This document shows, piece by piece, positions 5,047 through 61,139 of a stretch of DNA of 64,000 nucleotides (the first letter of the stretch is position 1; each line of letters begins with the position of its first letter). A program made the position numbers and the translations under genes. The notes under the pieces are model-generated. The model was not told the origin of the DNA. It saw nothing but the letters and a program-made list of their open reading frames with translations, and made no database searches. Where the stretch lies: IMG/VR virus record IMGVR_UViG_3300029641_000003, one strand, 5' to 3'. The stretch comes from a virus. Lineage: Duplodnaviria > Heunggongvirae > Uroviricota > Caudoviricetes.

Positions 5047-6006
5047 ATGATGCGCATTTTTATCGACGATGGTTCTACCAATATCAAAATGCTGTGGGAA
5101 CAAGACGGGGAAACTCGAACCCATATCTGTCCGAACAGTTTTAAACGTGGATGGTCCGCCACATTTGGCGCAGGAAAGCCGTTTAACTACATCATTGATG
5201 ACGAAAAATATTCATATGACTTGATTTCGCCGGATGTGCTGCCGACGAATAATGTGGAATGGCAATACAGCCCGCTTAATGTGCTTGCTGTTCATCATGC
5301 CCTGCTTACAAGTGGCATTGAGCCTCAAGAAGTGGAAATAGTTGTCACGTTGCCACTGGCAGAGTTTTATGACGACGACGCACAATACAACATGAAAAAT
5401 ATTGAGCGGAAAAAGGCCAGCCTGATGCGACCAGTCACCCTTAACAAAGGTCAGGTTTTTACTATCAAAAAAGTGACTGTGCGCCCGGAGTCAATACCCG
5501 CAGGGATCGGTCTGTGCGACAGCCTTGTGCCAGCGCATTCTGTGCTTATTGTTGATCTTGGTGGGACTACTCTGGATGTGTCGATGGTCGCCGGGCAAAT
5601 GACCGCCGTTTCTCGCGTATTTGGCGATTCTAATCTCGGCGTTTCGCTGGTAACTAAAGAGGTCAGACAGGCACTTGCAAAAGCGAATACCGAAACCTCT
5701 AATTATAATGTCGATCAATTAATCATTAATCGTGATGATGAGGATTATTTGACCGACAATATTAACGATCCGTCTGCTATTGATGATGTTAAGAAAGCCA
5801 TTTCGTCAAGCATAGAACGACTCCGTACACGCGTACTGGATGTGATCAGTGATTTCAAAGGATACACGCATGTTATGGTCATTGGTGGCGGCGCGCCGCT
5901 TGTTGCTGATGCTATCCGTGAGCAGGTAAACATTCGTGACGATAGGTTTTTTGTTGCTGATGATCCACAACTTGCTCTTGTCTATGGTCTAAAATCTATC
6001 GGTTGA
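5047..6006 (+). CDS. parM: ParM/StbA actin-like plasmid segregation ATPase
   Basis: Start MMRIFIDDGSTNIK with GGAG upstream; recalled R1 ParM similarity along the length (SPNSFKR, WQYSPLNVLAVHHALLTSG, NIERKKA, GYTHVMVIGGGA). Confidence 0.85.
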   Translation: MMRIFIDDGSTNIKMLWEQDGETRTHICPNSFKRGWSATFGAGKPFNYIIDDEKYSYDLISPDVLPTNNVEWQYSPLNVLAVHHALLTSGIEPQEVEIVVTLPLAEFYDDDAQYNMKNIERKKASLMRPVTLNKGQVFTIKKVTVRPESIPAGIGLCDSLVPAHSVLIVDLGGTTLDVSMVAGQMTAVSRVFGDSNLGVSLVTKEVRQALAKANTETSNYNVDQLIINRDDEDYLTDNINDPSAIDDVKKAISSSIERLRTRVLDVISDFKGYTHVMVIGGGAPLVADAIREQVNIRDDRFFVADDPQLALVYGLKSIG

Positions 6007-6016
6007 TGAGGTTGCC

Positions 6017-6382
6017 ATGTCTCAGGAACGTCGAAAAGTATTGTTTTATCTTCGTCCTGGTCTTAACGCCAGTGAGCAATATGCTGATGCAAAACTTGAG
6101 GGCCATCCATTAAGAGATCGCAATGATATGGCGCGCACAGCGATGCTTGCAGGTATCGCTCTTGGCGAGGTTGATAGCAGATTACCTCCCATGTTGGCAT
6201 CGCTTTTATCCGGTGATAATAGCCCTGAAGTGATCAGAAAAATGCTGGTTTCATTTCTTGAAATTTCGCCTGAAGTTCGGGAAAACCCTGAAGGAAACCC
6301 CTCTGCCTCAGCGGATGTTAAAAAACCTGGCGTTTCGAAAAGCCGCTCTGCACAGAATTTGGCAAACTCACTCCCTGATTAA
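6017..6382 (+). CDS. parR: ParR/StbB-like centromere-binding adaptor
   Basis: 121-aa ORF immediately after parM; N-terminal RKVLFYLRPGLNASEQ...RTAMLAGIALG resembles R1 ParR. Confidence 0.6.
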   Translation: MSQERRKVLFYLRPGLNASEQYADAKLEGHPLRDRNDMARTAMLAGIALGEVDSRLPPMLASLLSGDNSPEVIRKMLVSFLEISPEVRENPEGNPSASADVKKPGVSKSRSAQNLANSLPD

Positions 6383-6399
6383 CAAATCTACATCTTCAA

Positions 6400-6424
6400 A
6401 GGCTGCAATTTGCAGCCTTTTTTA
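6400..6424 (+). terminator. intrinsic terminator after parR
   Basis: AGGCTGCA-ATT-TGCAGCCT hairpin followed by TTTTT. Confidence 0.6.
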
Positions 6425-6439
6425 TACTGTTATGGTTCT

Positions 6440-6660
6440 AATTTGGTGCTCTTTTAGTACCAAAATGGTGTTGTTGTGGTGCTGTTTTGTGTCTGGTTCC
6501 ACTTTGAGGCTGATTTCGTGTTAAACAGGATGCAACAGAGGGCAAATTTCGAGTGTTTAGTGTTATACTTTTGCAAAGCATAGTGACTCCACTATAGAGC
6601 CAAAACCGCATCAATAAGGCTTCTGTTTGGAACCATTTTGATACCAAAATAACACCGAGG
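6440..6660. repeat. centromere-like repeat cluster upstream of parA
   Basis: TTTTAGTACCAAAATGGTGTTGTT and GGTTCCA...TTTGAGGCT motifs, repeated again downstream of parG at 7595-7665. Confidence 0.4.
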
Positions 6661-6667
6661 GACGGAT

Positions 6668-7309
6668 ATGATTATATTGGTAGCCAGCCAAAAAGGTGGC
6701 TGTGGCAAATCAACCACCAGCGTAAACATTTGTGCGGAGCTTGCCCGCGCAAATAAGGACGTAGTTCTACTTGATGCAGATAAGCAAGGAACATCTGCCC
6801 GTTGGGCATCGGACCGTAATGCGGCAGAGGTTTCTCCAGTAATTCATTGCGTCCAGAAGTTTGGGAATATTCGTGAAACACTTCTTGATCTGGACAAGCG
6901 TTATGAATTTGTGGTTGTTGATACCGCTGGTCGTGATAGCAAAGAGATGCGCACCGGTATTACTGCGGCGGATGTTTTGCTTGTTCCATTCAGGCCATCT
7001 CAGCCAGATTTAGACACGCTGGCGCATTTTGTTGAAGTCTTTGAAGAGGCTTTGGATCTGATGCCTAATCCTAGCATTAAGGCGTGCGCAGTTTTAACAA
7101 TGGCCCCATCCAATCCGGTTGTGAATGAAGCCAATGAGGCCAAAGAGTACCTGGCTGAATATCCGCAACTGAAGTTGCTGAAAACCATCATTCGCGATCG
7201 CAAGGTTTACCGCGATTGTATGGCTGAAGGGAAGGGCGTTGTTGAGATGGACAACGGGAAAGCTAAAGGTGAAATCCAGATGTTGGTTAAGGAGTTATTA
7301 AGTGATTAA
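6668..7309 (+). CDS. parA: ParA/ParF-type small Walker ATPase (type Ib partition)
   Basis: 213 aa; deviant Walker A SQKGGCGKST at N-terminus, VVVDTAGR Walker B region. Confidence 0.85.
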   Translation: MIILVASQKGGCGKSTTSVNICAELARANKDVVLLDADKQGTSARWASDRNAAEVSPVIHCVQKFGNIRETLLDLDKRYEFVVVDTAGRDSKEMRTGITAADVLLVPFRPSQPDLDTLAHFVEVFEEALDLMPNPSIKACAVLTMAPSNPVVNEANEAKEYLAEYPQLKLLKTIIRDRKVYRDCMAEGKGVVEMDNGKAKGEIQMLVKELLSD

Positions 7310-7589
7310 GCCTCGTAAATCGGTAAAAGCCCCCGAAGTAAAAGACCTCGATCTTGAACGCCGAATTGAGGCTTTTGCCAGCAAAGCTGATTTGGTGCCG
7401 GGTGAGCAACCAGAAGACAACAAAGTGCTCGATAAGGACGCCCCACGTGATTTTAAATCCATTCGTGTTGGCTTCAATGAATACGAGTACCAGGTACTTG
7501 ATGCGTTAAGCAAAAAGCATAATCGCAGCAAATTGAATATGATCCGCCATGCTATCCTCATGCTTGCAGAGTCTGAGGATACAAAATGA
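7302..7589 (+). CDS. ParG-like ribbon-helix-helix centromere-binding protein
   Basis: 95-aa ORF with GTG start overlapping parA stop; C-terminal RHH-like segment IRVGFNEYEYQVLDALSKK...MIRHAILMLAE. Confidence 0.5.
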   Translation: MIKPRKSVKAPEVKDLDLERRIEAFASKADLVPGEQPEDNKVLDKDAPRDFKSIRVGFNEYEYQVLDALSKKHNRSKLNMIRHAILMLAESEDTK

Positions 7590-7594
7590 CGCTG

Positions 7595-7665
7595 GAATGA
7601 CACCGTTTTGGTTCCATGTGTTATTTTGAGGCTACTTTGATTCCTTTTTAGTACCAGAATGGTGT
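7595..7665. repeat. second copy of centromere-like repeats flanking parA-parG
   Basis: GGTTCCATGTGTTATTTTGAGGCT and TTTTAGTACCAGAATGGTGTTGTT match motifs at 6440-6660. Confidence 0.4.
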
Positions 7666-7700
7666 TGTTAGTGTACCGTAACGGTGCTTGTTTGATGTTA

Positions 7701-7724
7701 TAAAAGCCCCATATGGGGCTTTTC
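7701..7724. terminator. bidirectional intrinsic terminator between convergent par and methyltransferase operons
   Basis: AAAA-AGCCCC-ATAT-GGGGCT-TTTT palindrome flanked by A-run and T-run. Confidence 0.55.
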
Positions 7725-8759
7725 TTAATTAAGTGTGGCTATAATGTCGTTAGCTATCATTCGCGTTGATGCTTTACAGGATACAGAGCGACGGGATGGC
7801 ATAGGATACACCTTGAAGCCATTGCCAACGTAAAGTTCGCGAATGTTAGGCGCACCACTGTTTGTTATCACAATTTTCGCTCCGCGTCTGTGGGCATCCA
7901 CCAGCAGTGACACCAGCCGTTGTTGATCTTCAAACCTAAAGCTATGCCCTGAGTAATTTGTAAATCCGGTAGTGTCGGGCAATGGTTCATAGGGGGGATC
8001 GCAGAAAATCACATCATCATTCCCGGCAGCCTCAATTACACCAGCAAAATCGCCGGACACAAATTCCGAATACTTTGAAATATCGTCAGCCAGGAACGCC
8101 TCCATTTCCGCGAGAGGGAAGTGGGGTGATTTCTGCTTTCCATATCCGACGTTGAACTCTCCTTTACGGTTATAGCGAGTGACGCCATTAAAACAATGAC
8201 GATTGAGATACAGGAACGCCGCTGCATGGTGAAGGGAATCATAAGCACCATTGTTGAATGCATTGCGAACATTCAAAAATGCATCAGCAGAGTTGTAATC
8301 CTGAAAAAAACGATATGCCAGTGTGATAAGAGAATGCCCTTCACGCTGCAATGTCTGATAGAAGTTAATCAGGTCATTATTGATATCGTTCAGCAGGTTG
8401 CTTTTAAATCCGGCATTAGTGAAAACAGCGCCACCTCCAACGAAAGGTTCTATCAACCGTTTTCCGTGGGGCAGGTGTTCGAAGATAATGGGCAGTGCAG
8501 AAAATTTGCCGCCGACCCACTTAAAGACTGGGCGATCAAATTCGTCCTCCGAGCGAATACGTCGCATATGGCTGATAGTGGCTTCCGCCGCAGGACGATG
8601 ATTGTCGCTATAAGAAATAAATTTAGCACCAATATCAGCCACGGATTCCCTCCTTATTTGCTTCAAATACAGCTCTTGCAAAACCGTAAGGTGTCGCGCT
8701 ACGAAAATTCGCTCTTTCAGGCCCTGGCGGTGCCTTGTGTATTCGGTTATCTGGATCAC
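7725..8759 (-). CDS. Dam-like N6-adenine DNA methyltransferase (start uncertain, possibly ATG at 8567)
   Basis: KWVGGKF, FVGGGAV (SAM motif), NRHCFNGVTRYN, DPPY catalytic motif; recalled E. coli Dam similarity begins at about residue 75 of the ORF. Confidence 0.8.
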   Translation of the reverse strand: MIQITEYTRHRQGLKERIFVARHLTVLQELYLKQIRRESVADIGAKFISYSDNHRPAAEATISHMRRIRSEDEFDRPVFKWVGGKFSALPIIFEHLPHGKRLIEPFVGGGAVFTNAGFKSNLLNDINNDLINFYQTLQREGHSLITLAYRFFQDYNSADAFLNVRNAFNNGAYDSLHHAAAFLYLNRHCFNGVTRYNRKGEFNVGYGKQKSPHFPLAEMEAFLADDISKYSEFVSGDFAGVIEAAGNDDVIFCDPPYEPLPDTTGFTNYSGHSFRFEDQQRLVSLLVDAHRRGAKIVITNSGAPNIRELYVGNGFKVYPMPSRRSVSCKASTRMIANDIIATLN

Positions 8760-10216: not shown

Positions 10217-10250
10217 TGTGTTAGAAAATAAAACTCAATTATCTAACACA
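10217..10250. promoter_or_regulatory. operator: inverted pair TGTGTTAGA(N16)TCTAACACA
   Basis: 9-bp perfect inverted repeat of the dispersed TGTGTTAGAAAAT motif, just upstream of the rdgC start. Confidence 0.5.
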
Positions 10251-21249: not shown

Positions 21250-21260
21250 TGTTAGAAAAT
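21250..21260. promoter_or_regulatory. operator half-site TGTTAGAAAAT
   Basis: Exact core motif at the head of the immI-like leader. Confidence 0.4.
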
Positions 21261-21835
21261 TAATTTATTAATTCAGTCACCATCTGATACAACGTCATTT
21301 CATCAGCATTGTGCCGCCTGAAATCTGCTTTGCCGCCTATTTTTCCATCAGCATGAACAGGGACCAACCAAGGGTATTGCTCGCGGATCTCTGCTGGCGC
21401 TGCGTGTTGATGGTGCCATTTACACAAAGGGAGGACGTATTTATGCGCGTTCTCTGCTGTTCTCCCGAAGATGTGGTGCAGGGATACCACAGGGCTATGC
21501 TGTCCGTGCATATGGCAGGCAATGCAGGGGAGAGCACCGATGGCAGTTTGTATCCGGCGCTCATCTGCTGTGAGTGTTCTGCCTTTCAGGCCGCGTGACG
21601 CGCGAGTTTTTTTGACAGGAGCAGAAGCGGCCTTCTCTTTTCTTCGCTGTTCATATTGCTTCGCTTTTTCAATTTTCTTTTGCCGATATTCAGGCGATGC
21701 GGCTTTTTCTCGCGCACGCTGCTGCTGGCGTTGAGCTTGCTGAAGACGCTTTGCCCTTTGTTCCTCCCGCCATTTCGGATCAGCCAGTTTTTGCAGGGCT
21801 TTTTGTGTCTGTTTCTCCCAATAGCTTTGCTTCAT
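21260..21835 (-). CDS. ref: Ref-like HNH endonuclease (track ORF extends to TTG at 21877)
   Basis: LPCIACHMHGQHSPVVSLHHIFGRTAENAHKYVLPLCKWHHQ HNH motif; Lys/Arg/Gln-rich N-terminus; start taken at ATG 21835. Confidence 0.7.
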   Translation of the reverse strand: MKQSYWEKQTQKALQKLADPKWREEQRAKRLQQAQRQQQRAREKAASPEYRQKKIEKAKQYEQRRKEKAASAPVKKTRASRGLKGRTLTADERRIQTAIGALPCIACHMHGQHSPVVSLHHIFGRTAENAHKYVLPLCKWHHQHAAPAEIREQYPWLVPVHADGKIGGKADFRRHNADEMTLYQMVTELIN

Positions 21836-21879
21836 AGAAATACCCGGTTTGTCTACATCGCCGCTATGGTTGATCAAAA

Positions 21880-21913
21880 TGTGTTAGAAAATCAAAATTG
21901 ATTTTCTAACACA
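21880..21913. promoter_or_regulatory. 34-bp near-perfect palindromic operator TGTGTTAGAAAATCAA-AA-TTGATTTTCTAACACA
   Basis: 16-bp arms are exact reverse complements; sits between ref and a divergent plus-strand operon. Confidence 0.55.
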
Positions 21914-36530: not shown

Positions 36531-36626
36531 ATTTTCTAATAGGAACAATCAAAAAAAAGCGGTTTTATCCTTTACTCACCTTGTTATTCAGCATAAATTT
36601 GTCACAGGACTTTTATGTTAGAAAAC
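36531..36626. promoter_or_regulatory. operator pair flanking promoter of the c1-position gene
   Basis: ATTTTCTAATA (36531-36541) and TGTTAGAAAAC (36616-36626) in inverted orientation. Confidence 0.45.
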
Positions 36627-36643: not shown

Positions 36644-37681
36644 ATGAGTAAGAAGTCGATCGAGAATGAGTACAAACGGTTCCTGCAAACCGCTGAACGG
36701 TGGAAAGAGCTGGTGGTCGCAAACTCTGTTTTCCATGATACCAGTTATGTTGGCGAGGAATTTCGCCATGTTGCATTAACACATGATCCGGCTGTATTAG
36801 AAGAAGCTGAAAAATGCATAGCCGAATGGAAAGCCTTTGTTGATCTGTGTCGCAAGGATGATGACAAAGCCTCAAACATTGTTGAGTCGGTTTATTTACC
36901 GATCCCATTCATTGTTGAGGATACTAATCAGAGTACGCATATCGTTATGCAAAGCGCAACCACAACGAGAACATTTACGCGCGAAGACCTGTTGAAAAAA
37001 TACGATAAAACTATAAAGAAAAGCATGAAAAACAGGATATTTTCACAGGTTGTCGGTGCGCTTGAAGAAGAACGCAGATTCTTCGCCGCTGAACGTGAGG
37101 GCGAGGTATACCGCGCAAGAAAAGAAGGTTATACCGATGTGGTGATTACCACCAATATCGAGGGCAACAATGGACTTTCACGCTTCAGAGTGGGTACGCA
37201 CGGTGCGCTGATCTTTGCCAGAAAAGCAAACACAGAGATTCCCGTTGTTAACAACGTTGGTGAGCGCCGCACCCTTACCATTTACACTGGCATTAAACCG
37301 CTTCCGTGCGGACTTCTCGGCGAATTTGACCTTTATCGGGTTCGTGATCTGGAAAAGCAGCAGCCAAGCTATGTCGTGAAGTCATATATCCTGAGAAACA
37401 TTGATATCCGCAATCAGAGTTTAAAAAACAAATCAGATAAAATGCTGGCCGAAGCCGATCCAGCCATACACCAGATCGTTAGCCGGAAAATTCAAGAGGC
37501 TAAAGATGCAATGGCAAGGCTGGATAAAATGGACCTGGAACTACTGGAAGTTATGATTGCCTCCGGCGATGACCTGACAGGCATCCGCCTTACTGAAGCC
37601 AGGAAAAAATACGGTAAAAGCGTTGAAGAACGCTATGGGTACACATTCACACAAACGATGTACGCGGCAAAACTCTGGTAA
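36644..37681 (+). CDS. candidate primary repressor (occupies the c1 position between lox and pacB)
   Basis: 345 aa, AGGA RBS; convergent with pacB and divergent from cre as c1 is in P1; homology to C1 not verified. Confidence 0.35.
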   Translation: MSKKSIENEYKRFLQTAERWKELVVANSVFHDTSYVGEEFRHVALTHDPAVLEEAEKCIAEWKAFVDLCRKDDDKASNIVESVYLPIPFIVEDTNQSTHIVMQSATTTRTFTREDLLKKYDKTIKKSMKNRIFSQVVGALEEERRFFAAEREGEVYRARKEGYTDVVITTNIEGNNGLSRFRVGTHGALIFARKANTEIPVVNNVGERRTLTIYTGIKPLPCGLLGEFDLYRVRDLEKQQPSYVVKSYILRNIDIRNQSLKNKSDKMLAEADPAIHQIVSRKIQEAKDAMARLDKMDLELLEVMIASGDDLTGIRLTEARKKYGKSVEERYGYTFTQTMYAAKLW

Positions 37682-41047: not shown

Positions 41048-41078
41048 AAACATGATGTATTAGAAAATTAATATTAAT
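41048..41078. promoter_or_regulatory. operator pair TATTAGAAAAT ... AATTTACTAACAC
   Basis: Inverted motif-family half-sites upstream of lpa-like gene. Confidence 0.45.
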
Positions 41079-41087
41079 TTACTAACA

Positions 41088-41471
41088 CTACCAGCGGGAT
41101 AAACGAACAACATGCTTAACTTTTGCCTCCCACTTCCCTTTATGTTTGTTGATCACCGCCTGGGCCATCTTCAGACTGGCTTCAAAATCGGCTTTTCGAC
41201 CACTATTACCCACCAGCAACGCTCCGTCTATTTCAGGTAAGCATAAGTAATCCTGCTCGACGGTAAGCGGCATTGATGATGTAACCTGGCAGGCTTTCCA
41301 TCTGAAGCGTATGCGCACACTCCTGACTGACATCACGACATAACCTGATATTGTGCTCTTGTGTCCGGCGTCTGTGCGTGTAGCCTTGCATGATGTTATC
41401 TTGCAGGTGATAATGTCCCAACCAATGTGCATCGCATCCTCAATGCGTAATTTAGTAGCCTCGTACATCAA
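41088..41471 (-). CDS. hypothetical protein (127 aa)
   Basis: ATG ORF overlapping next gene by 4 nt. Confidence 0.4.
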   Translation of the reverse strand: MMYEATKLRIEDAMHIGWDIITCKITSCKATRTDAGHKSTISGYVVMSVRSVRIRFRWKACQVTSSMPLTVEQDYLCLPEIDGALLVGNSGRKADFEASLKMAQAVINKHKGKWEAKVKHVVRLSRW

Positions 41472-42043
41472 AAAACCTCCCAGTCAGTAGCGATAATATC
41501 AACACCAGTTGCAAACCAGTCTGTCTGTGCCTGTAAATCCCCATTCATCATTACCAGGCGAGGCATAACCATCACATCACAACCTTCAACAATATCGAAT
41601 GCCTCTTCCGGCAGGAATTCGACGAGCTTTTCTTTGCTGCCAACACTGCCACGGAGCATCGATATATAGCTCCCTTTAGGCCATGATGTTCGCCGGGCAT
41701 CAAGCCCCTTCATCATCCAGTAAAAGGCCGATGAGAACGGGATGTTCTTTTTGGCGATGAGCACGTTATTCGCTTCTGTGTACTTCAGGAACTTAATTAA
41801 CCTTACCATTGACTCGGATAACGCAATGTACGGCTCATGATTGATTGCTGACACGCTTACGCCGTGCAGTCCAACACTTACCACAGTCATATCACCGTTC
41901 TGTGCGGTTTCGATGTTGACGCCTTTACGAACTAACGCTGCATAAAGCTCCTCGCGCTTTTGCGTCCAGCATTCTCGTCGCCCTATAAAGTCACTCAAAA
42001 CGAGATCATCTTCTGAATACGCGTTATCGTTCGCCGTTAACAT
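41468..42043 (-). CDS. hypothetical protein (191 aa)
   Basis: ATG ORF; no recognised motif. Confidence 0.4.
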   Translation of the reverse strand: MLTANDNAYSEDDLVLSDFIGRRECWTQKREELYAALVRKGVNIETAQNGDMTVVSVGLHGVSVSAINHEPYIALSESMVRLIKFLKYTEANNVLIAKKNIPFSSAFYWMMKGLDARRTSWPKGSYISMLRGSVGSKEKLVEFLPEEAFDIVEGCDVMVMPRLVMMNGDLQAQTDWFATGVDIIATDWEVF

Positions 42044-42497
42044 AACGTCTCCTTTTTTACACGCGCGACTATCCCCCGGCTGAACCGGTAGTGACGTCGT
42101 AACTTCGTATTAATTAAGGGTTACAGCCTGAGCGGCTATATGATGAATTGAAAGGAGTTGTGGCGGTGGTGCCTCCACCTGCCAGGTTAGCCACGCCCGG
42201 CGACGACACTTATCAGAACGTAGTGAATGAAAATGGCTTCGTCACGAGCGCATAGCCGCAATTACCACAACGGAGAAGGCGCTCGTATTAATTAAACACC
42301 TTTTCCTGTTGTACGCCGTGCTATTCCGGCTGTCACACCGAATCGCCAGGATGGTGAGTCCCTGAGTCCGCTATCCCTCCAACGGTGACTTGCACATTCC
42401 GGCTACCTGGTGTGCCCATGCAGTGTTAGTAAGGCACCTAACAGCTACACCAGACCGCTAACGACGCATGTGCCATACGCCGTGTTACAACCAAATG

Positions 42498-42573
42498 TGG
42501 TGGCCCCTACCGGACTTGAACCGGTGACCGTGCGATTATGAGTCGCCCGCTCTAACCACTGAGCTAAAGGGCC
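42498..42573 (-). tRNA. tRNA-Ile (anticodon CAU, ileX-like)
   Basis: 76 nt GGCCCTTTAGCTCAGTGGTTAGAGCGGGCGACTCATAATCGC...GGTTCAAGTCCGGTAGGGGCCACCA; cloverleaf with CAU anticodon and encoded CCA; near-identical to E. coli ileX as recalled. Confidence 0.8.
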
Positions 42574-42710
42574 AGATTACTGTTAATTACGCTTACGCTT
42601 TTTGCCAGAACCGCGTAAGGCTTTTGCCGCTTGCTCTACCCCGTATGCAACCACCAGCAGAAACAATAATGTCCACTCCGGGTTTTTATCGGCAAACGCC
42701 CAAAAATTCA

Positions 42711-42944
42711 TCACTTACAGCCACCTTGCATTTCCTCGGATAATTCATTGACTTTAGTGCTCAATAAGTAATCAAAGTAAAGATAAAACACAAAAGTAAC
42801 GATAGTGCTTAAAGTGTCTGAAATTGCGTATTTCAGCTCAGGAAGCATGACAAAGCAGACAAATAGCGGAAGAAATAACTGCACTATGCACAGACTCTCC
42901 TTCCACAACCATCTATATCTGAAGTCTGACAACAAAAACTCCAT
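42711..42944 (-). CDS. small membrane protein (77 aa)
   Basis: Hydrophobic segments; stop overlaps start (TGATG) of a further 41-aa hydrophobic ORF at 42583-42711. Confidence 0.35.
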   Translation of the reverse strand: MEFLLSDFRYRWLWKESLCIVQLFLPLFVCFVMLPELKYAISDTLSTIVTFVFYLYFDYLLSTKVNELSEEMQGGCK

Positions 42945-43194
42945 TGCTTGAAACTTTATTAGATTGCGGTGCCTGGTGCCTCCAGGTGACGTTAACCAGT
43001 TAACAATTAACGCCGGGATGTTTGACTTAACTATTAAGGAAAATTGTTTTAACTGTTCCGCGTGCGCTTAGCCGCATTCACCGCAATGGTAAGAGCATTT
43101 GGCTGGCTGGGCGGCGATGACGCCTGTACGCATTTGGTGATCCGGTTCTGCTTCCGGCATTCGCTTAATTAGCCAAATACTCTTAACGTTGCGC

Positions 43195-43281
43195 TGGCGG
43201 AGAGTAATGGAATCGAACCATCATCGCTTGCGCAATGGGACGGTTTTCAAGACCGCTTGAGCACCATGCTCCCTACTCTCC
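43195..43281 (-). tRNA. tRNA-like gene, type II (long variable arm), possible tRNA-Ser(UGA)
   Basis: GGAGAGT/ACTCTCC 7-bp acceptor stem, discriminator G plus CCA, T-arm GATGG-TTCGATT-CCATT, anticodon loop CTTGAAA; D-arm atypical. Confidence 0.4.
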
Positions 43282-43529
43282 AGTGATTGTGGTGGTCGGT
43301 ACTGATCTCCGACTGCGCCTCTTTTTTTCATAGCCCATAAGGCCGGTCAGTGCGCTTGATGACTGAGGCATCGATATTTACTACGCCGCCTCGTTGCCAT
43401 AGGGCGGACTTGCGCGCCAGCAACGCGCATTCACCACAACGGAAAGAGCATTTATGGCTCGCATCGCGGGAAGCGGGAAAAAACCCACGGTAGAGAGTCG
43501 AACTCTACAAATGCTCTTACCTGTTGTGT

Positions 43530-43605
43530 TGGTGCCGGTTAACGGACTCGAACCGCTGACATCCTGCTTACAAGGCAGGCGCTCTACCAACTGAGCTAAA
43601 CCGGC
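43530..43605 (-). tRNA. tRNA-Thr (anticodon UGU)
   Basis: GCCGGTTTAGCTCAGTTGGTAGAGC...CTTGTAA...GGTTCGAGTCCGTTAACCGGCACCA canonical cloverleaf. Confidence 0.85.
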
Positions 43606-43607
43606 AT

Positions 43608-43682
43608 TGGCGATGGTGGATGGATTCGAACCACCGACCAGTTGGTTAACAGCCAACTGCTCTACCACTGAGCTACACCATC
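43608..43682 (-). tRNA. tRNA-Asn (anticodon GUU)
   Basis: GATGGTGTAGCTCAGTGGTAGAGC...CTGTTAA...GGTTCGAATCCATCCACCATCGCCA; 2 nt from tRNA-Thr. Confidence 0.85.
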
Positions 43683-44995
43683 ACTTGCCGGGTACGTCTC
43701 CGGCGAGGGCTTCCACCTCCGTATGCTTTTCGGCGCACCGCGCCCTGGCTGCAATTCGGTAACAGGGGATGCACAACCCTGGCTTCCAGCGTGATTAGCG
43801 CCTTCAGCATGACGGGATATACCCGTTACAAGACATTATTCCAGAAAGCCATTAACCAATGGCTGTTACGCGGAAAGGACGTAACAGGTAAGGGCGCTGA
43901 CCAGAAAGACCTGACCCTTCTCATTCATCTGGTTAATCACACCAGCGCCCTTGCCTGTTATGCCTCCCCGTTCCCTAATACACAGACGGGGACACTCTGC
44001 GGTCGATTTTTTGACGGGGGACGACTCATACCCCGTGGTGTCAGGCTTCTTAGGCCGCTACCATCATCAGATCATCGTTTGCATTTACTTTAATGGTCGG
44101 GTTCTAAACCGCCGCAAAGTCGCTAACCATGACGAAAACACTGAAAAAACACCCACCCGAAGGTGGGCAAATATCCCACTCGCGGTATTGCCACTTAGGC
44201 GTATGGTCAACCTGGCAACTCGGTGTCCTCAACGGGGAAGGAATAACCCCGCCATACTTACCGCCGCGCCTGTCGCGGTTATCGCTACGTATCAACATAA
44301 AAGCCGACTGCCTGAGCAAGATTCACTTTCAAAGGCCCGCAGAAAGGAATCCATAGTCGGCTTTTATCTTGAAGCGGCTCTCTCTCCGCCCGTCACCGCT
44401 CTGTCTCGGTTGTCACGTTTGCCACGCCAGCCGTAACGAGGTTTAAAGTCTTTGCACGTTTCCATCACTCGACTGCCGTCTGTGGCTGTTCGTTGCAGCG
44501 GGGGTGCCTCCCCCTGGGGATATCCCCGGCCTTACCCCATTCTTTCAAGACACAATGCAAGGCCACATCCGCATAGGTGCATTACCGCAACGTTAAGGAG
44601 ACTCAGAGTCAGCAAAATAAGAGGAAAACCCAACTCTGCGCCTCCTTAACGTTGAGGATGTGCACTGATGATGACCCGATGCAGCCTGGCCCACTTAACA
44701 TACTCACTGCCAGATCATCATCAATGAACACCATAAAAAGACCTTCCGTGGCTCAAGTCACTGTCGTTTACTCCGTAAAATGCTCTCGCTGAAACCACTT
44801 TACGCACTAAACCTGCCGGGCATGTATTTGCACGGTGCCGGAGCTTTCCCTTACCTTAAAATTTACTTTCTAACACTTAAATTTGTTTGATGCTGGTGGG
44901 GAAAGACAATGAAGTGACTATCAAACCCGCAAGCGACATGGGAAGCTCCCCACCAGCACGAAAAATTCTATGTTAAGTTAACCCCATAATCAATA

Positions 44996-45027
44996 TGTTA
45001 GAAAAACAATTTTAATTTTCTAACATA
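44996..45027. promoter_or_regulatory. operator: inverted pair ATGTTAGAAAA(N10)TTTTCTAACAT
   Basis: 11-bp perfect inverted repeat; another half-site TTTCTAACAC at 44867-44876. Confidence 0.5.
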
Positions 45028-46236
45028 TTATTTCCCGTAAAGATTTTCAACTCCACCGTTCTTCTTATCCCACTCGTTCGCCCATACCCGGCAAGCATCA
45101 ATTATTTCCTGACGGCGATCGCCCTGCATGAACGGAATGCTTTCATGAAAGCTGCTTGGAATGCAGGCCACACTGAACACTGTATCAAACTCAGTCTGCT
45201 TGATTGCCTCCAACGTCTCTGGACGCATTTTCAATTCGTCGATCGGTGCATCCTTAGAGTCCATAATCCGGCGATGCAAGCGTGGAAAATCCGTTTCAAG
45301 GTACGCCATAATTTTATCTGCCAGGCATTCGTCTATGTCGGTATTCCAGTCAGTTTCGAAGCCAGGAATTCGGTAGTAAAGCGGCGTTCCCCATACTGAC
45401 GGGATCACATCCATCGTCAGCAGGCGGCTGGTTCTGATTTGCTGATGGTAATTTGCCGTCAGCAACGCTTCGCCACGTTGCCCAGTCTCCGCGACCAGAC
45501 CATGCGGAAACTCATGGATATAGGCAATAGCTTCTCTTCCGTCATACATTAGCGGGAATGTCTCTGGCCTTTGCCCCATGCCACAGGCGCGATTCAGATC
45601 ATGACCAAGCTCTGAGCACTCTCGTTTCAATGTTTCAATAATGCTCTGCGCCGCTGCTAACTTTTTACGCAGTGTGACGAGTTCGCCTTGATACTCAACG
45701 CATTGCTGATTTAGCTTGGTTAAACGCTCTTTTAGTTCCCGACGCTCTCTTTTCAGCGTGCGGTTATCTTTCTCCGCAACATCCAGTCGTTTTGTCAGGC
45801 TTGGCGGATAGTCTTTTTTGTAACGACTCAAATCGACTTCAGCAGATTTGCGCAGTGTATTTGCCTGCTCAAGACGCGCCTCCAGATTGCCGATCTCATT
45901 ACGCATATTCGCGGCAAATTGATTAACTGCATCCCCCAGGCTTTCAACTGTCGCTGATACACCAGTGACTTGAGAAAAACGGATCAAGCCATCATTAACG
46001 GCTTGCTGATATTCCTCAAACTGATCCACCAGCTTATTGTAATCAACTGCCCCATCATCAAGGAGCTGGTTGATTTCCGCCACCAGGTTATCTGTAGTGG
46101 CAATGACGCTCTCATGCAGTCGCTTTGACAGGTCATCGCCCGGATTTCGTTTCTGTATAAGCGCGATTTGTGTCCGCAGCGTTTCAATTGCGGTTGAGAT
46201 GATCTCCAGGCTTGATGATTCTACTTGCTGACTCAT
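45028..46236 (-). CDS. hypothetical protein, N-terminal coiled coil plus C-terminal globular domain (402 aa)
   Basis: Single gene bracketed by operator sites and an intrinsic terminator upstream. Confidence 0.5.
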   Translation of the reverse strand: MSQQVESSSLEIISTAIETLRTQIALIQKRNPGDDLSKRLHESVIATTDNLVAEINQLLDDGAVDYNKLVDQFEEYQQAVNDGLIRFSQVTGVSATVESLGDAVNQFAANMRNEIGNLEARLEQANTLRKSAEVDLSRYKKDYPPSLTKRLDVAEKDNRTLKRERRELKERLTKLNQQCVEYQGELVTLRKKLAAAQSIIETLKRECSELGHDLNRACGMGQRPETFPLMYDGREAIAYIHEFPHGLVAETGQRGEALLTANYHQQIRTSRLLTMDVIPSVWGTPLYYRIPGFETDWNTDIDECLADKIMAYLETDFPRLHRRIMDSKDAPIDELKMRPETLEAIKQTEFDTVFSVACIPSSFHESIPFMQGDRRQEIIDACRVWANEWDKKNGGVENLYGK

Positions 46237-46260
46237 GTTTGTTCCCTTTCTTGAAATTAG

Positions 46261-46270
46261 TTTTCTAACA
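46261..46270. promoter_or_regulatory. operator half-site TTTTCTAACA
   Basis: 25 bp upstream of start of 45028-46236. Confidence 0.4.
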
Positions 46271-46311
46271 TATTTTATTAGTATGCAATTTCAATAAAAA
46301 GACTCAGGCAA

Positions 46312-46335
46312 CAAAAAACCCGCCAACTGGCGGGT
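46312..46335 (-). terminator. intrinsic terminator ending the darB operon
   Basis: CCCGCC-AACT-GGCGGG hairpin followed on minus strand by a run of 6 T. Confidence 0.55.
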
Positions 46336-46345
46336 TTATGACCGT

Positions 46346-46672
46346 TTAGACGTGTTGGAGTAGCATGTATGCCATATAAATCAAAGCTATCAGTACGACA
46401 ACTACCTCTGAAATTCTAAACGCGCGCTTTACTATCTGCCGCTCACCGTGGGGTATACCATCCGAGTATTCCTGATCCGTCATTTTCCCCAGCCAGCTTA
46501 CCGATAACAGAGCTGCATTCTCACTCATATCAAGTTCACTTACGGCCTCTCGTATAAGTGGAGCGGTTACTTTCCTGGAAGCAACTTTCATGGTTATGCT
46601 TCTGGTTCTTCCGGCGTCATCAGCAAACGTCAGATTTACGTGGTGTTTTCTGCTCAATGAACAAACTCCCAA
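46346..46672 (-). CDS. hypothetical protein with C-terminal membrane anchor
   Basis: 108 aa ending VVVVLIALIYMAYMLL. Confidence 0.4.
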   Translation of the reverse strand: MGVCSLSRKHHVNLTFADDAGRTRSITMKVASRKVTAPLIREAVSELDMSENAALLSVSWLGKMTDQEYSDGIPHGERQIVKRAFRISEVVVVLIALIYMAYMLLQHV

Positions 46673-46868: not shown

Positions 46869-47315
46869 TTAATCAAGATTTACATATTCCGTGATAGCTT
46901 TTATGGCTTCATCGGCACTGCGCGCCTCAAAGCAGTAATAGCCTGCTTCCGTGAGGCGAGTCATCCAGACGAGCTGTTCGGGAGTCAGACGGTTTCTCCC
47001 GTGCTTCATCTCAATGCGCATTCCGTGATACCCACCACGAGCAAGGTCAATAGAAAGGTCCGGATAGCCCTTCTTCTGACCTTCTGCCACCATCTTAATG
47101 GCTGTCCTTTTGCCTCTCAGGCCGCCGTTCGGTGTTGAGTGTGTGTGCTCATACACGTATCGCATGTTGCGATACAGCCAATCCAGAACGCGAACCTGTT
47201 CGTAATGTTCGTAATTCCGTTTTAATAAGTCAGGTTTTCTTTCTAACTCTCTCAGTGCAGCAGCGTGCGGGGATATTTCAGAATACGCACTATGATGCCT
47301 GCGTCTTCGCATCAA
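46869..47315 (-). CDS. VRR-NUC domain nuclease (start uncertain)
   Basis: GYPDLSIDL...RIEMKHG fits PD-(D/E)xK core of VRR-NUC. Confidence 0.55.
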   Translation of the reverse strand: MMRRRRHHSAYSEISPHAAALRELERKPDLLKRNYEHYEQVRVLDWLYRNMRYVYEHTHSTPNGGLRGKRTAIKMVAEGQKKGYPDLSIDLARGGYHGMRIEMKHGRNRLTPEQLVWMTRLTEAGYYCFEARSADEAIKAITEYVNLD

Positions 47316-47316
47316 A

Positions 47317-47327
47317 TTTCTAACACA
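47317..47327. promoter_or_regulatory. operator half-site TTTCTAACACA
   Basis: Motif-family member abutting the VRR-NUC ORF start. Confidence 0.4.
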
Positions 47328-58441: not shown

Positions 58442-59440
58442 TCACATCCTCTTAGACACAAAGATCAGCGGAGTCACCGTCTTGTTCTCTTTCACCGGTA
58501 TTTCTTGTTGTTTATTGGCTGATATTGGCAGACCATAAGTGGCATTAGCCCCCAGGGATTCAAGCATCGCTGCAACAATGCGTGCATCATCCTCTGACTG
58601 CATACGGCAGAGCGCCCGGCGCTGTTCTGTGCTGATAAAAACAGGCATTTCCTGGATAGCATCACGCAAAATACGGCGGCATTTCTTCGCGTTCTCCCCC
58701 TGGCTTTCCATCATCGCGGCCTGGTCGCGTAGTTTGTCGCGAAGCTGCATATTTTCCACTTCAAGATGTATCAGTTCCGACTCCAGAACTTCACGTTGTG
58801 CTGATTCGAGTATGGCTTGCTGACTCTTCATTGCTGAAAAGTGGTGAACCAGATCCGTAGCAGCATTATCGGTAAAACCTTGTTCGATAAGTGCCGCATG
58901 AATCGCCGCGTCGCGTTCTTCTGCTGATTCAAGCATCAGGCTTTTCTTGTCGAGGCTGATATAGTTAGGCACAGTTACGTAATCAAAACCGTGAAAAGAC
59001 TTTACCAGGGATACAGAGTAATCTGGACCAGATGTAGCCCATGACCAACCACCTGCGCCAGAATTAATCATACCCTGAACAATACGTCCGGTGTCCGTAT
59101 CCAGTATTTCCTGTGTATGGGTAACAATGCCGTTGTCGTCAATTGAAATGTCGATAGTCCTGTTTGACGGCACGTTCTCCAATACAACAGGCTTCCCATC
59201 TACCATCACAACAGAGACTTCCGGCAAGTCCAGGCTTTTCGTTTTGTTATAGTGCATCGCCCGGCGACCATGACCGTAATAACCATACATCTCACCCAGT
59301 GCGATACGCTCTTTTGTTTCTGGCGAGTTGAATGTGTCTCGTACCGACTGGATAACGTAATTGCGATTGTTCTGAGGTGTGTGTTTGCGGATTTTCTCTA
59401 CCAGGGAGAAGCGATCCGTAACGGTATTCAGTGATTGCAT
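58442..59440 (-). CDS. hypothetical morphogenesis protein (possible prohead protease/scaffold by position)
   Basis: 332-aa ORF directly downstream of portal-like gene. Confidence 0.35.
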   Translation of the reverse strand: MQSLNTVTDRFSLVEKIRKHTPQNNRNYVIQSVRDTFNSPETKERIALGEMYGYYGHGRRAMHYNKTKSLDLPEVSVVMVDGKPVVLENVPSNRTIDISIDDNGIVTHTQEILDTDTGRIVQGMINSGAGGWSWATSGPDYSVSLVKSFHGFDYVTVPNYISLDKKSLMLESAEERDAAIHAALIEQGFTDNAATDLVHHFSAMKSQQAILESAQREVLESELIHLEVENMQLRDKLRDQAAMMESQGENAKKCRRILRDAIQEMPVFISTEQRRALCRMQSEDDARIVAAMLESLGANATYGLPISANKQQEIPVKENKTVTPLIFVSKRM

Positions 59441-59453
59441 TATTTCCCTCCGG

Positions 59454-61139
59454 TTAATTATTGCTCATCACAAATTTTGCAAAGTTGATTAATTGTTCTT
59501 GCGTCCAGTTTTCCGGATCGTCACCGGACGACAACGGCGCGGATTCGTACATACCATGCTCGTTGTTTTGCTCTGATTCATTCGCCTTAAACTCTTTGAT
59601 CATTACGTTGAGAGTGTCATCGTCGATACGAAGCTGTTCGGTGAACAGATAACGCATAAACGCGTCGCTACCCGCCAGTTTCGGGTTGTTCTGGATCTGG
59701 TCCATTATTTGCGAGATGACAGCTACGAAGTTGGCGCGCGCATCCAGCTCTCGGTTTTCCTCTTCCTGGATAGCTGTATTCATTGAGTTGAATTGCACGT
59801 CATAAGGACGGTTTTTTTCGGTGTAAACCTTCCCGTATTTATAAGCGAGGTGAATGTCATGAAGCCGATAAATAGTCCGCTGGGCGGCCTGTCTGATCCA
59901 GTTCGCGCGTAATGCGGCCTGGATAGCTGTTTGCTGCCAACCGCCTTCTCCAAGTCCACCACTCATCTGATCAGCCCAGCCAAGCATTGTTGCGTCAATA
60001 CCGAGGCTTGCCGCGAGCTGTCGGAGATGAAACATAACGTCTTCGATACCACTGATATCTGCGGGTATAGATTGCGTATCAATGGTGATCCCGTTCTTCC
60101 CATCCCCCATGACGGGTATCAGATGGTTAAGTACAGATGGGAGAGCATTAGAATTAATCGACCGTTGCGCTACGAGGTCGCTATGACGCTTCAGTGCCTG
60201 GCTGACCCCGCGCGTATAATTCGCCGCGTTTACCGGATCTATCGTGTTCGTTGTGAGTGCAATCAGGCGATCAATTTTTGCAGCGTTGTTTCGCGTTGCT
60301 TTCAGCGCAGCAAGCGCGGCACATAAATTCAGGTAGGGTTCATAACTGTATTCAAGAAACGACGTACCGTAGTTCTGCGTCTCCATTAACGGCTTGTCCT
60401 GCTGTTCACTAAGCAAGGAATAGCCTTTAGTGCCGTAAGTTACTGGCATTACTTTATGCTGAGGCGTCCAGTACGGGTTTTTCATGGAAACCAGATTCCA
60501 CGGTTCGGTTATAACTCTGCGCAAAGTATGCGTATCCAGAATGTAATCACCGCTGAATCCGACAAGTTGGCTACCGCGATAAAACTCCTGAACGAAATGA
60601 GGGAGCGTGTAATAGCTCGACTCAATTCCAGTTATCCCCTTCCCTTGCTCTGCATATGGACGGATATACGACACACCGAAAATAGCCATGATCATGGCCC
60701 ACGATGGAAGGCCATCATTAATCATTGAGCTTAAATCAGCGGTCAATTCCTCACATCGACTTACAGCCTCCTTATCCGCCCCATTTTTCGGCGCGAGAAT
60801 AAATGCGAGGCCTGTTTTTTTTGATGGAGCCAGAGAATGCGCAATGTGAATGTTTAATGCTGTGGAGATAGTCGGACTTTTCGCCATCGTCTCCAGTATG
60901 TTGTATTTTTGCAGGCGGTCACTCGGTAATTCTGCCGATATAGATACTGTATCCGCCGCGCTTGTCATGCCATCGCTATTGCTCCCCAGGATGCCAGGAC
61001 GCAAGGCGGACAGGCCAGAACGAGCAACGACGCTATGCCCGCTCGCAAATACGACCGGATCGGCAGGCGTAACATCACCACCGCTGAAGGCTTTCTTCAA
61101 TGCCGACAGAAAGCCCTTGTTTTTGTCTTTCGTTGCCAT
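59454..61139 (-). CDS. portal-like protein
   Basis: 561 aa, size and position typical of a portal (prt) gene; no motif verification possible. Confidence 0.4.
   Translation of the reverse strand: MATKDKNKGFLSALKKAFSGGDVTPADPVVFASGHSVVARSGLSALRPGILGSNSDGMTSAADTVSISAELPSDRLQKYNILETMAKSPTISTALNIHIAHSLAPSKKTGLAFILAPKNGADKEAVSRCEELTADLSSMINDGLPSWAMIMAIFGVSYIRPYAEQGKGITGIESSYYTLPHFVQEFYRGSQLVGFSGDYILDTHTLRRVITEPWNLVSMKNPYWTPQHKVMPVTYGTKGYSLLSEQQDKPLMETQNYGTSFLEYSYEPYLNLCAALAALKATRNNAAKIDRLIALTTNTIDPVNAANYTRGVSQALKRHSDLVAQRSINSNALPSVLNHLIPVMGDGKNGITIDTQSIPADISGIEDVMFHLRQLAASLGIDATMLGWADQMSGGLGEGGWQQTAIQAALRANWIRQAAQRTIYRLHDIHLAYKYGKVYTEKNRPYDVQFNSMNTAIQEEENRELDARANFVAVISQIMDQIQNNPKLAGSDAFMRYLFTEQLRIDDDTLNVMIKEFKANESEQNNEHGMYESAPLSSGDDPENWTQEQLINFAKFVMSNN

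Follow-up and report, generated by a model that had tools for sequence, protein, structure and literature searches.

We report here on a single minus-strand gene and its control sequences in a stretch of 64,000 nt from a Caudoviricetes virus (IMG/VR record IMGVR_UViG_3300029641_000003), referred to as the window throughout. Sequence comparison identifies the gene, an ATG-initiated coding sequence of 402 aa at 45028-46236, as the D6-lineage orthologue of pmgS of phage P1, and the window as a D6-like, P1-family plasmid prophage of Escherichia. The best overall explanation of our findings, which we regard as reasonably likely, is that pmgS constitutes a repressor-controlled unit of this lineage, encoding an early, non-essential and DNA-associated accessory protein. 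The reading frame itself had been delineated correctly in an earlier first-pass annotation, made from the letters alone; the accompanying remark that the protein matches neither P1 ban nor ref overlooked its identity with pmgS.

Indeed, the profile of PHROG 1660, named 'PmgS-like head morphogenesis', aligns with essentially the entire protein (residues 1-401 on profile positions 1-404/405, E 3.8e-143), and orf9 of Escherichia phage D6 (MF356679 / NC_050154), a P1-related plasmid prophage, shares 94.3% amino acid identity with it. P1 PmgS (P1_gp093) is far more distant, with 22% identity in a pairwise BLASTP alignment of window residues 2-395 with P1 residues 7-415 (E 2e-13), and P1 itself was not recovered by tblastn of the phage collection at E 1e-5, so that the link is established by the direct pairwise comparison. 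The two proteins nevertheless have the same domain order, a coiled coil followed by a middle domain and a C-terminal helical domain. The neighborhood is shared as well: the order darB-ulx-(x)-pmgM(VRR-NUC)-pmgR-pmgS is common to the window, D6 and five diverged P1-like contigs, and pmgR lies next to pmgS also in D6 and in the contigs L015, L018, L019 and L020. In the window, the pmgR-like reading frame occupies 46346-46672 on the minus strand (108 aa as listed); it is 28% identical to P1 PmgR (E 9e-8), and its D6 counterpart is annotated as 'similar to P1 gene pmgR'. A Shine-Dalgarno-like AGGGA, read from the sequence, is present at 46243-46247, 6 nt before the pmgS start codon.

At the DNA level the window region is 87% identical to D6, a value that also applies approximately to pmgS and orf9 themselves. 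The locus is found in 111 PLSDB plasmids, seven of which, from E. coli or E. marmotae and of about 90 kb, match at 99% or more, while the remaining 104, from Escherichia, Salmonella and Shigella, match at 80-90%. In total, 86 family proteins were detected by profile search at E <=0.001 among 1.84 billion representative proteins, a family size that counts clusters at 50% identity; most have 360-470 aa and the same layout. Thus, the gene is a further member of a known, uncharacterised family rather than a new accessory gene.

Control region upstream of pmgS and the dispersed motif

The pmgR-like unit is closed by a predicted intrinsic terminator on the minus strand at 46316-46337, AAACCCGCCAGTTGGCGGGTTT followed by TTTGTT, as proposed in the first-pass annotation, the coordinates of which are accurate to within 1-4 nt, and now recovered by terminator scanning, folding and conservation. 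The hairpin begins 9 nt past the pmgR-like stop codon and has nine pairs (six of them G-C) and a 4-nt loop, after which comes TTTTTTGTT; its folding energy is -18.6 kcal/mol (z = -3.3). The stem is kept in D6, and equivalent terminators occur in L018, L019 and L020, the PmgS proteins of which are 46-55% identical to that of the window.

Between this terminator and pmgS lies a candidate sigma-70 promoter (46267-46294, minus strand), with a -35 element TTGAAA (46294-46289), a 16-nt spacer and a -10 element TATGTT (46272-46267), scoring 9 of 12 matches in the promoter scan. An alternative -10, TAAAAT, is found at 46277-46272, immediately 5' of a monovalent operator-like site, ATGTTAGAAAACTAA, at 46257-46271 on the same strand. 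The site has no mismatch to the 15-mer described below and overlaps the -10 region and the predicted start site of the candidate promoter. It is embedded in a minus-strand block of 29 nt, ACTAATAAAATATGTTAGAAAACTAATTT, that is 100% conserved with D6 while its flanks diverge. A related arrangement is evident in more distant genomes: in L018 and L019 (PmgS 46-52% identical), the terminator is followed by TTTACA or TTTACT, 16 nt and TATAAT at the aligned position, with the -10 placed between two half-sites, TTTCTAAT and T(n)GTTAGAAA. L020 (55% identical) has a similar layout in which the half-site is less clear. Judged from these alignments, the order of terminator, putative operator-embedded promoter and pmgS is conserved in D6 and in L018-L020. 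D6 orf9 shares with the window the neighbors, the 29-nt block, the terminator and the downstream promoter discussed below; the -35 TTGAAA is present in the window but not in D6.

The arrangement is reminiscent of P1, where an orthologous pmgS is likewise adjacent to pmgR and under repressor-operator control at its promoter, as we infer for the window. In P1, however, pmgR and pmgS are separated by only 1 nt and share PpmgR with two operators (OpmgRa/OpmgRb, formerly Op86a,b), whereas in the window a terminator stands between the two genes, and pmgS appears to have a promoter of its own with one strong site.

The motif that underlies this site is dispersed over the window. The exact 11-mer TTTTCTAACAT, which the first-pass annotation had placed at both ends of the gene, occurs at 44995-45005 (minus strand), 45016-45026 (plus) and 46261-46271 (plus). 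Its 10-mer core, TGTTAGAAAA, has 12 copies in the 64-kb window against 0.28 expected, and the extended 15-mer RTGTTAGAAAAYTAA is found 24 times with three or fewer mismatches against 6.0 expected; neither count was attained in any of 100 shuffles. All 17 sites with at most two mismatches are intergenic or located at gene borders. As judged against the annotation of the P1 RefSeq record, moreover, the sites fall where P1 has its C1 operators. A site at 36615, about 25 nt before the start of c1, corresponds to Oc1ab; the pair 41057/41074 upstream of lpa to Olpa; the pair 21881/21898 upstream of a ref-like gene to Oref, and 21249 at the 3' end of that gene to Omat; 57212, after repL and before icd-ant, to Orlf; 46257 upstream of pmgS to OpmgRa/b; and 44995/45012, at a promoter reading into tRNA genes, to Obanab, which in P1 precedes a dicF-like region and tRNA-Asn/Thr. 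A further site, 58414, lies upstream of repL. Sites are found in equivalent places in D6, and the D6 late-gene block from pro to the capsid gene (31.7 kb, 22.5-54.2 kb) contains none, even at three mismatches.

The geometry of the sites is congruent with an operator. Four pairs (44995/45012, 10218/10235, 21881/21898 and 41057/41074) form 32-bp palindromes with an identical arm offset of 17 nt. Three single sites (21249, 35218 and 58414) are oriented antisense into convergent gene ends, which suits an operator and not a promoter element. The C1-like repressor of the window (about 36653-37681) is a distant homologue of P1 C1 (21% identity, E 2e-7), and a diverged, heterologous-type operator is therefore to be expected; indeed, RTGTTAGAAAAYTAA does not match the 17-bp P1 operator consensus ATTGCTCTAATAAATTT, having in common with it a TCTAA core and A/T flanks. 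Aggregated, the intergenic placement and the match to P1 operator positions support the dispersed operator of the first-pass annotation, and by positional analogy with P1 we consider it quite probable that C1 operators of the D6 type have the sequence RTGTTAGAAAAYTAA. Searching the literature for this sequence returned nothing relevant.

Within this putative regulon, the palindromes other than the one next to pmgS are located at 41057-41088 upstream of lpa, at 21881-21912 in the gap that separates the ref-like gene from a divergent operon, and at 10218-10249 in the interval from gene 5 to hrdC. Clustered half-sites, some full and some degenerate, occupy 1128-1193 between capsid gene 23 and orf52, and in front of the pmgM-like VRR-NUC gene a site with two mismatches (47312-47326) falls between the ribosome-binding site and the start codon.

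The palindrome downstream of pmgS and the tRNA unit

Two nucleotides after the pmgS stop codon begins a 32-bp palindrome (44995-45026), composed of two 15-mer sites, 44995-45009 on the plus and 45012-45026 on the minus strand, the arms of which are 2 nt apart. Directly beyond, the promoter scan revealed TTGATT, 17 nt and TAGAAT at 44965-44993 on the minus strand, directed away from pmgS into a 1.25-kb region poor in open reading frames (ORFs) and then into the tRNA-Asn, Thr, Ser and Met genes, all of which share this strand. D6 has the same two hexamers, and L018, L019 and L020 have TTGATT, 17 nt and TACAAT. A second candidate promoter of uncertain status (TTGAAA, 17 nt, TATGTT; 45022-45050, minus strand) has its -35 within the last pmgS codons. 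The downstream transcript would carry a leader stem-loop at 44890-44959 on the minus strand (-30.2 kcal/mol, z = -3.8), which shows compensatory changes relative to D6 and is formed by the same stem in L018. Just past it stands a third operator-like site, GTGTTAGAAAGTAAA (44862-44876, minus strand), conserved in D6 (L003 8913-8927) and in L018-L020.

The order of these elements is again preserved. In D6 and L018-L020 we find, in succession, the terminator, the -10 flanked by half-sites, pmgS, the site at the stop codon, TTGATT-17-TAnAAT, the stem-loop and the second site; in L018-L020 one site overlaps or directly follows the pmgS stop codon. The palindrome has an intact second arm in the window and a degenerate one in D6. 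This layout assigns the palindrome, as probable divalent operator, to the unit that follows leftward, which comprises the leader RNA and the tRNAs and corresponds to P1 Pban/Op72ab; the pmgS unit does not include it. Furthermore, no terminator was found downstream of pmgS, the palindrome as RNA being an A/U-rich hairpin that lacks a U-tract, and read-through past pmgS is therefore likely. The idea of an insulated, repressor-controlled single-gene unit put forward in the first-pass annotation thus holds on the upstream side, where the terminator and a promoter overlapped by one site recall the control by OpmgRa/b in P1, and does not extend to the downstream side. The operator 'bracket' around pmgS is a coincidence of two adjacent repressor-controlled units.

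Two regions of P1 offer parallels. The ban control region (P1ban/P2ban, with Obanab, formerly Op72ab) also has a divalent palindromic operator over tandem promoters, followed by a non-coding RNA-like sequence (dicF-like in P1) and by tRNA-Asn and tRNA-Thr on the same strand. In the window, however, neither a ban helicase gene nor tci genes come next, and the palindrome spans 32 bp with arms 2 nt apart as opposed to 28 bp with overlapping 17-mers in P1. The window leader differs too, being a conserved ORF-poor region of 1.25 kb that matches no Rfam family. The second parallel, to P1 ref, had been drawn in the first-pass annotation and is apt: ref is flanked by Oref upstream and Omat over its stop codon, so that an operator-flanked gene reflects two consecutive C1-controlled units, and the ref-like gene of the window (21260-21877) shows the same two-operator arrangement. 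The Ref protein, a RecA-dependent nuclease, is unrelated to PmgS.

The ORF-poor stretch (43700-44960, minus strand) merits separate description. It contains long runs that are 98-100% identical to D6, compared with about 87% for pmgS, and a single indel of about 105 nt; a terminator-like hairpin is located at 44169-44150, and no Rfam family reached threshold in the stretch. In every P1-like relative examined, pmgS is followed by 1.2-1.6 kb without genes. The stretch has the appearance of a non-coding RNA region, with one large structured RNA or several preceding the tRNA cluster.

ARAGORN and Rfam assign all four tRNA genes (Met, Ser-UGA, Thr and Asn; 42498-43682) to the minus strand, the direction in which pmgS and the upstream promoter also run; in both D6 records, the homologous genes for Ser, Thr and Asn are annotated in the reverse orientation (D6 7145-7850; L001 6395-7100). 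The Ser tRNA scores 44.6 against the tRNA-Sec gathering score of 47, and is hence just under it. Between tRNA-Met and tRNA-Ser, at 42911-43106 on the minus strand, Rfam gave a near-threshold match to the gammaproteobacterial small RNA STnc100 over the full model length (43.7 bits vs 47, E 3e-7). Comparison of 42040-43200 with D6 5630-7145 indicates that the D6 genes tciA and tciB are apparently absent from that part of the window, which instead has tRNA-Met (42498-42573) and a 77-aa ORF (42711-42944). Finally, a 191-aa ORF between lpa and the tRNA region (41468-42043, minus strand) encodes a Tad2-like (Thoeris anti-defence 2) domain at 40.2 bits against a Pfam cut-off of 25 (E 5e-10); it has homologues in the same position in other D6-like contigs and is annotated as hypothetical in D6 (orf6).

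Predicted structure of PmgS and its wider family

An AF2 model of the window protein (m7f70b1f629ac), generated from a 56-sequence family alignment, reached a mean pLDDT of 85.9; it superseded a run with 10 close homologues that had left residues 225-300 unmodelled (pLDDT 30-46). The model agrees with the N-terminal coiled coil and distinct C-terminal region proposed in the first-pass annotation. The coiled-coil region covers codons 7-217 (45586-46218, minus strand) and is predicted as four long helices (7-30, 35-91, 100-142 and 145-217). It is followed by a family-specific alpha/beta domain, codons 226-330 (45247-45561, minus strand), with strands at 226-231, 234-243, 264-269 and 274-280 and helices at 299-329, all modelled at a pLDDT of about 87-96. 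This domain is the most conserved part of PmgS, with dense invariant columns among close homologues, and when searched alone it had no match in PDB sequences or Pfam. The C-terminus, codons 339-393 (45058-45222, minus strand), is a compact helical domain of predicted helix-hairpin-helix (HhH) type.

In the model the C-terminal domain resembles the (HhH)2 fold of the C-terminal domain of the RNA polymerase alpha subunit (alpha-CTD). Profile search with the PmgS family matched the alpha-CTD at 1.3e-5 as well as HhH domains, and among the 56 family members Pfam identified HHH_5 (PF14520) in 12 and RNA_pol_A_CTD (PF03118) in eight. The similarity includes the alpha-CTD (PF03118) and the related (HhH)2 domains of the RAD51 N-terminus and the NusA acidic repeats. 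Typical family members keep the alpha-CTD-like signatures LSxRxxNxL and K-G-h-G-x-K-T, and R338 of the window protein, the Arg equivalent to alpha-CTD R265, is conserved. The D6 and P1 branches of the family have a non-canonical G-h-G hairpin. Unlike the alpha-CTD, the domain is fused to a coiled coil and to the middle domain, for which PDB and Pfam gave no match, and is not part of RNA polymerase.

Other searches were less informative. Foldseek of the model against PDB and BFVD returned no match at E <=0.001, the profile of close homologues found nothing specific in PDB, and Pfam, NCBIfam and PADLOC gave only sub-threshold coiled-coil matches for the window protein. The latter, to ATG17, ERM, DivIVA, SMC, Rad50, JetC and LmuB, all fell below the respective cut-offs and were dropped as compositional. 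DivIVA, the label assigned by PGAP to some plasmid copies, scores 18.9 bits against a Pfam cut-off of 28, a coiled-coil-only match.

The family extends from the P1/D6 phage-plasmids to integrative, Vibrio-type prophages. The integrative relatives comprise L008 (a prophage within a chromosomal contig of 2.6 Mb), three contigs from metagenomes (L014, L016 and L017) and the Vibrio phages 1F273_PE002 and douglas 12A4. Here the PmgS-like gene is situated in the immunity or early region and not in head modules, with Dam-type methylases and an integrase close by. In three of them it lies directly downstream of a CI-type helix-turn-helix repressor of about 217 aa, and in L008 and L017 a small AlpA/Xis-like gene comes directly after it; the small genes beside PmgS in these relatives showed no homology to PmgR. 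The recurring neighbors (L008 5060-9098; L017 3817-6580; L010 2680-6714; L009 5401-7163) are a CI-type repressor, sometimes YfdP/YfdQ, the PmgS-like gene, an AlpA/Xis-like gene (74-78 aa) and/or a Dam-type methyltransferase, and an integrase nearby. The set faces a divergent early operon with Ref-like and VRR-NUC nucleases.

Proposed mechanism and alternative explanations

We propose that the terminator at 46316-46337 ends the upstream pmgM/pmgR transcript, leaving pmgS as a short unit of its own. A weak sigma-70-type promoter would follow, the -10 region and start site of which lie under the 15-bp site ATGTTAGAAAACTAA. In a lysogen, the C1-like repressor bound to this site would keep RNA polymerase from the promoter; once a cell is infected or repression is lifted, early expression of pmgS would follow, in parallel to that of P1 pmgR-pmgS under PpmgR/OpmgRa,b. 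The conserved structured leader or non-coding region and the tRNA cluster would be transcribed from the adjacent leftward promoter (TTGATT, 17 nt, TAGAAT) with its divalent operator, in the manner of P1 Pban/Op72ab. The product is presumably a dimeric, non-essential, DNA-associated accessory protein that acts early, and not a prohead scaffold. That PmgS binds DNA is suggested by the predicted fold, and we place this at somewhat less than an even chance.

Several observations weigh against this proposal. The pmgS promoter is weak and its -35 is not conserved in D6, so that the exact promoter in the window/D6 branch is uncertain, and read-through or an activator could contribute to pmgS expression. 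The operator assignment in the D6 lineage draws on positional analogy with P1, and the motif and the P1 operator ATTGCTCTAATAAATTT share only the TCTAA core. Moreover, a site at 1179-1193 precedes gene 23, for the major capsid protein, by about 130 nt, at a position where P1 has a late promoter and no operator. As for the protein, the window sequence by itself gets no direct Pfam HhH match, and the Foldseek E-values for the alpha-CTD likeness are not significant on the whole model. In the MAFFT alignment, the second HhH hairpin of the window/D6 branch reads F-M-Q-G-D-R-R in place of the canonical G-M-G-K-x-T, and DNA binding may thus be altered or lost in this branch.

The capsid-proximal site and the poor -35 in D6 would also fit a different assignment of the motif, namely as a D6-type late-promoter box that is recognised by the late activator Lpa and has its -10, TAAnnT, one base further on, which would make pmgS a late gene. 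Such a hexamer does follow after 1 nt at most sites in the RTGTTAGAAAA orientation, resembling the P1 late promoter with its box and -10 and no -35, and it was from this feature that we first read the motif as an Lpa box. That reading was dropped, as the sites map to P1 operator positions and avoid the D6 late block, and we now consider it very unlikely. The sites upstream of c1, lpa, ref, repL and icd-ant correspond to genes that are C1-controlled and not late in P1, while no site precedes the 26-25, 7-24-6-5, pro-prt or darB operons of the window or occurs in the 31.7-kb late block of D6. Three sites are antisense into gene ends, four form 32-bp palindromes, and the P1 Lpa boxes AAGTGACTT, ATGTGACTT and TAGTCATTT are unrelated to the motif, though Lpa is 34% identical between both phages. 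Nor are P1-type late boxes (AAGTNACTT plus a -10) over-represented in the window (16 vs 14 expected), and none is near pmgS. A more local alternative concerns the palindrome after the stop codon, which could function chiefly at the RNA level, as a hairpin that stabilises the 3' end of the pmgS mRNA or weakly terminates it, rather than through protein binding as an operator. Its 15-bp stem (-13.6 kcal/mol, z = -5.1), which begins 2 nt past the stop, is compatible with such a role. However, the stem is A/U-rich with no U-tract after it; D6 retains the first arm and the downstream promoter but has a degenerate second arm; L018-L020 keep a single site at the stop codon and no hairpin; and palindromes of identical geometry are present in three further promoter regions. 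An RNA role is hence improbable, and a divalent operator of the next unit is preferred.

For the protein, the existing labels point to the head: GenBank describes D6 orf9 (MF356679) as a 'putative prohead scaffolding protein', another label of orf9 is 'PmgS-like head morphogenesis', and PHROG 1660 belongs to the category 'head and packaging'. According to this view PmgS would be a scaffolding or head-morphogenesis protein, the motif-bearing promoter merely giving expression before or during assembly. PmgS is indeed long, helical and rich in coiled coil like many scaffolds, and no separate scaffold has been identified in P1 (PMC9024508). Yet an in-frame P1 deletion of pmgS was among 29 knockouts of which only those of pmgA, B, C, G and R were defective (PMC9024508), and thus had no plaque defect, and a CRISPRi screen in P1 classed pmgS as non-essential (PMC10695390). 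The P1 virion-proteome paper makes no mention of pmgS in its main text, and proposes the cleaved 120-residue N-terminal segment of the major capsid protein itself as scaffold. Nor does pmgS stand beside capsid, protease or portal genes in the window or D6: its neighbors in the window are pmgR, pmgM, ulx, darB and tRNAs, while pro-prt lies at 58442-61139 and gene 23 before about 1050, so that pmgS is outside the head module. Its promoter in P1 is of the sigma-70 type under C1 control and not a late one, in integrative relatives the gene sits in the cI-int region without pmgR, and an alpha-CTD-like HhH domain is not expected in a scaffold. We regard a scaffolding role as highly doubtful, and the labels 'head morphogenesis', 'scaffolding' and 'DivIVA' are probably wrong. 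The first-pass annotation had held that clear homology to a structural protein would speak against an accessory gene; such homology exists in name only, through a label unsupported by the available evidence.

The same integrative relatives raise the option of a role in lysogeny or conflict, for instance in superinfection exclusion, anti-defence or maintenance of prophage DNA, with low-level or conditional expression rather than a part in lytic development. In three of them the gene follows a CI-type repressor of about 217 aa on the same strand, succeeded by an AlpA-like gene, a Dam methylase and an integrase, and the position after CI is classic for accessory genes expressed in lysogeny. In D6-like elements, pmgS lies between the Dar anti-restriction genes (darB, ulx) and the Tad2-like anti-Thoeris gene, and its dispensability for P1 plaque formation is in line with such a function. 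On the other hand, no PADLOC defence model matched beyond coiled-coil noise; anti-restriction activity was unchanged in P1 lacking pmgS, as in the other P1 knockouts without a defect (PMC9024508); co-transcription with cI is deduced from gene order only; and pmgS would be repressed in P1/D6 lysogens if the operator assignment is right. A lysogeny or conflict role is a live, if rather unlikely, alternative, and an early DNA-associated accessory protein remains the preferred explanation.

How such a protein might operate can be sketched, as an unlikely but specific possibility, from the predicted domains. The PmgS family could represent a small, phage-restricted family, with a dimeric coiled coil and an alpha-CTD-like domain, that binds A/T-rich, UP-element-like DNA or decoys factors docking on the alpha-CTD, thereby reprogramming transcription of the host or the phage or organising phage DNA early after derepression. 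In any case, the alpha-CTD-like domain, of a type associated with DNA binding, offers a starting point for one of the P1 'pmg' genes, many of which are uncharacterised. Furthermore, the working definition of the D6-type operator as RTGTTAGAAAAYTAA, in single sites and 32-bp palindromes, would make the immunity regulon of these widespread plasmid prophages readable from sequence.

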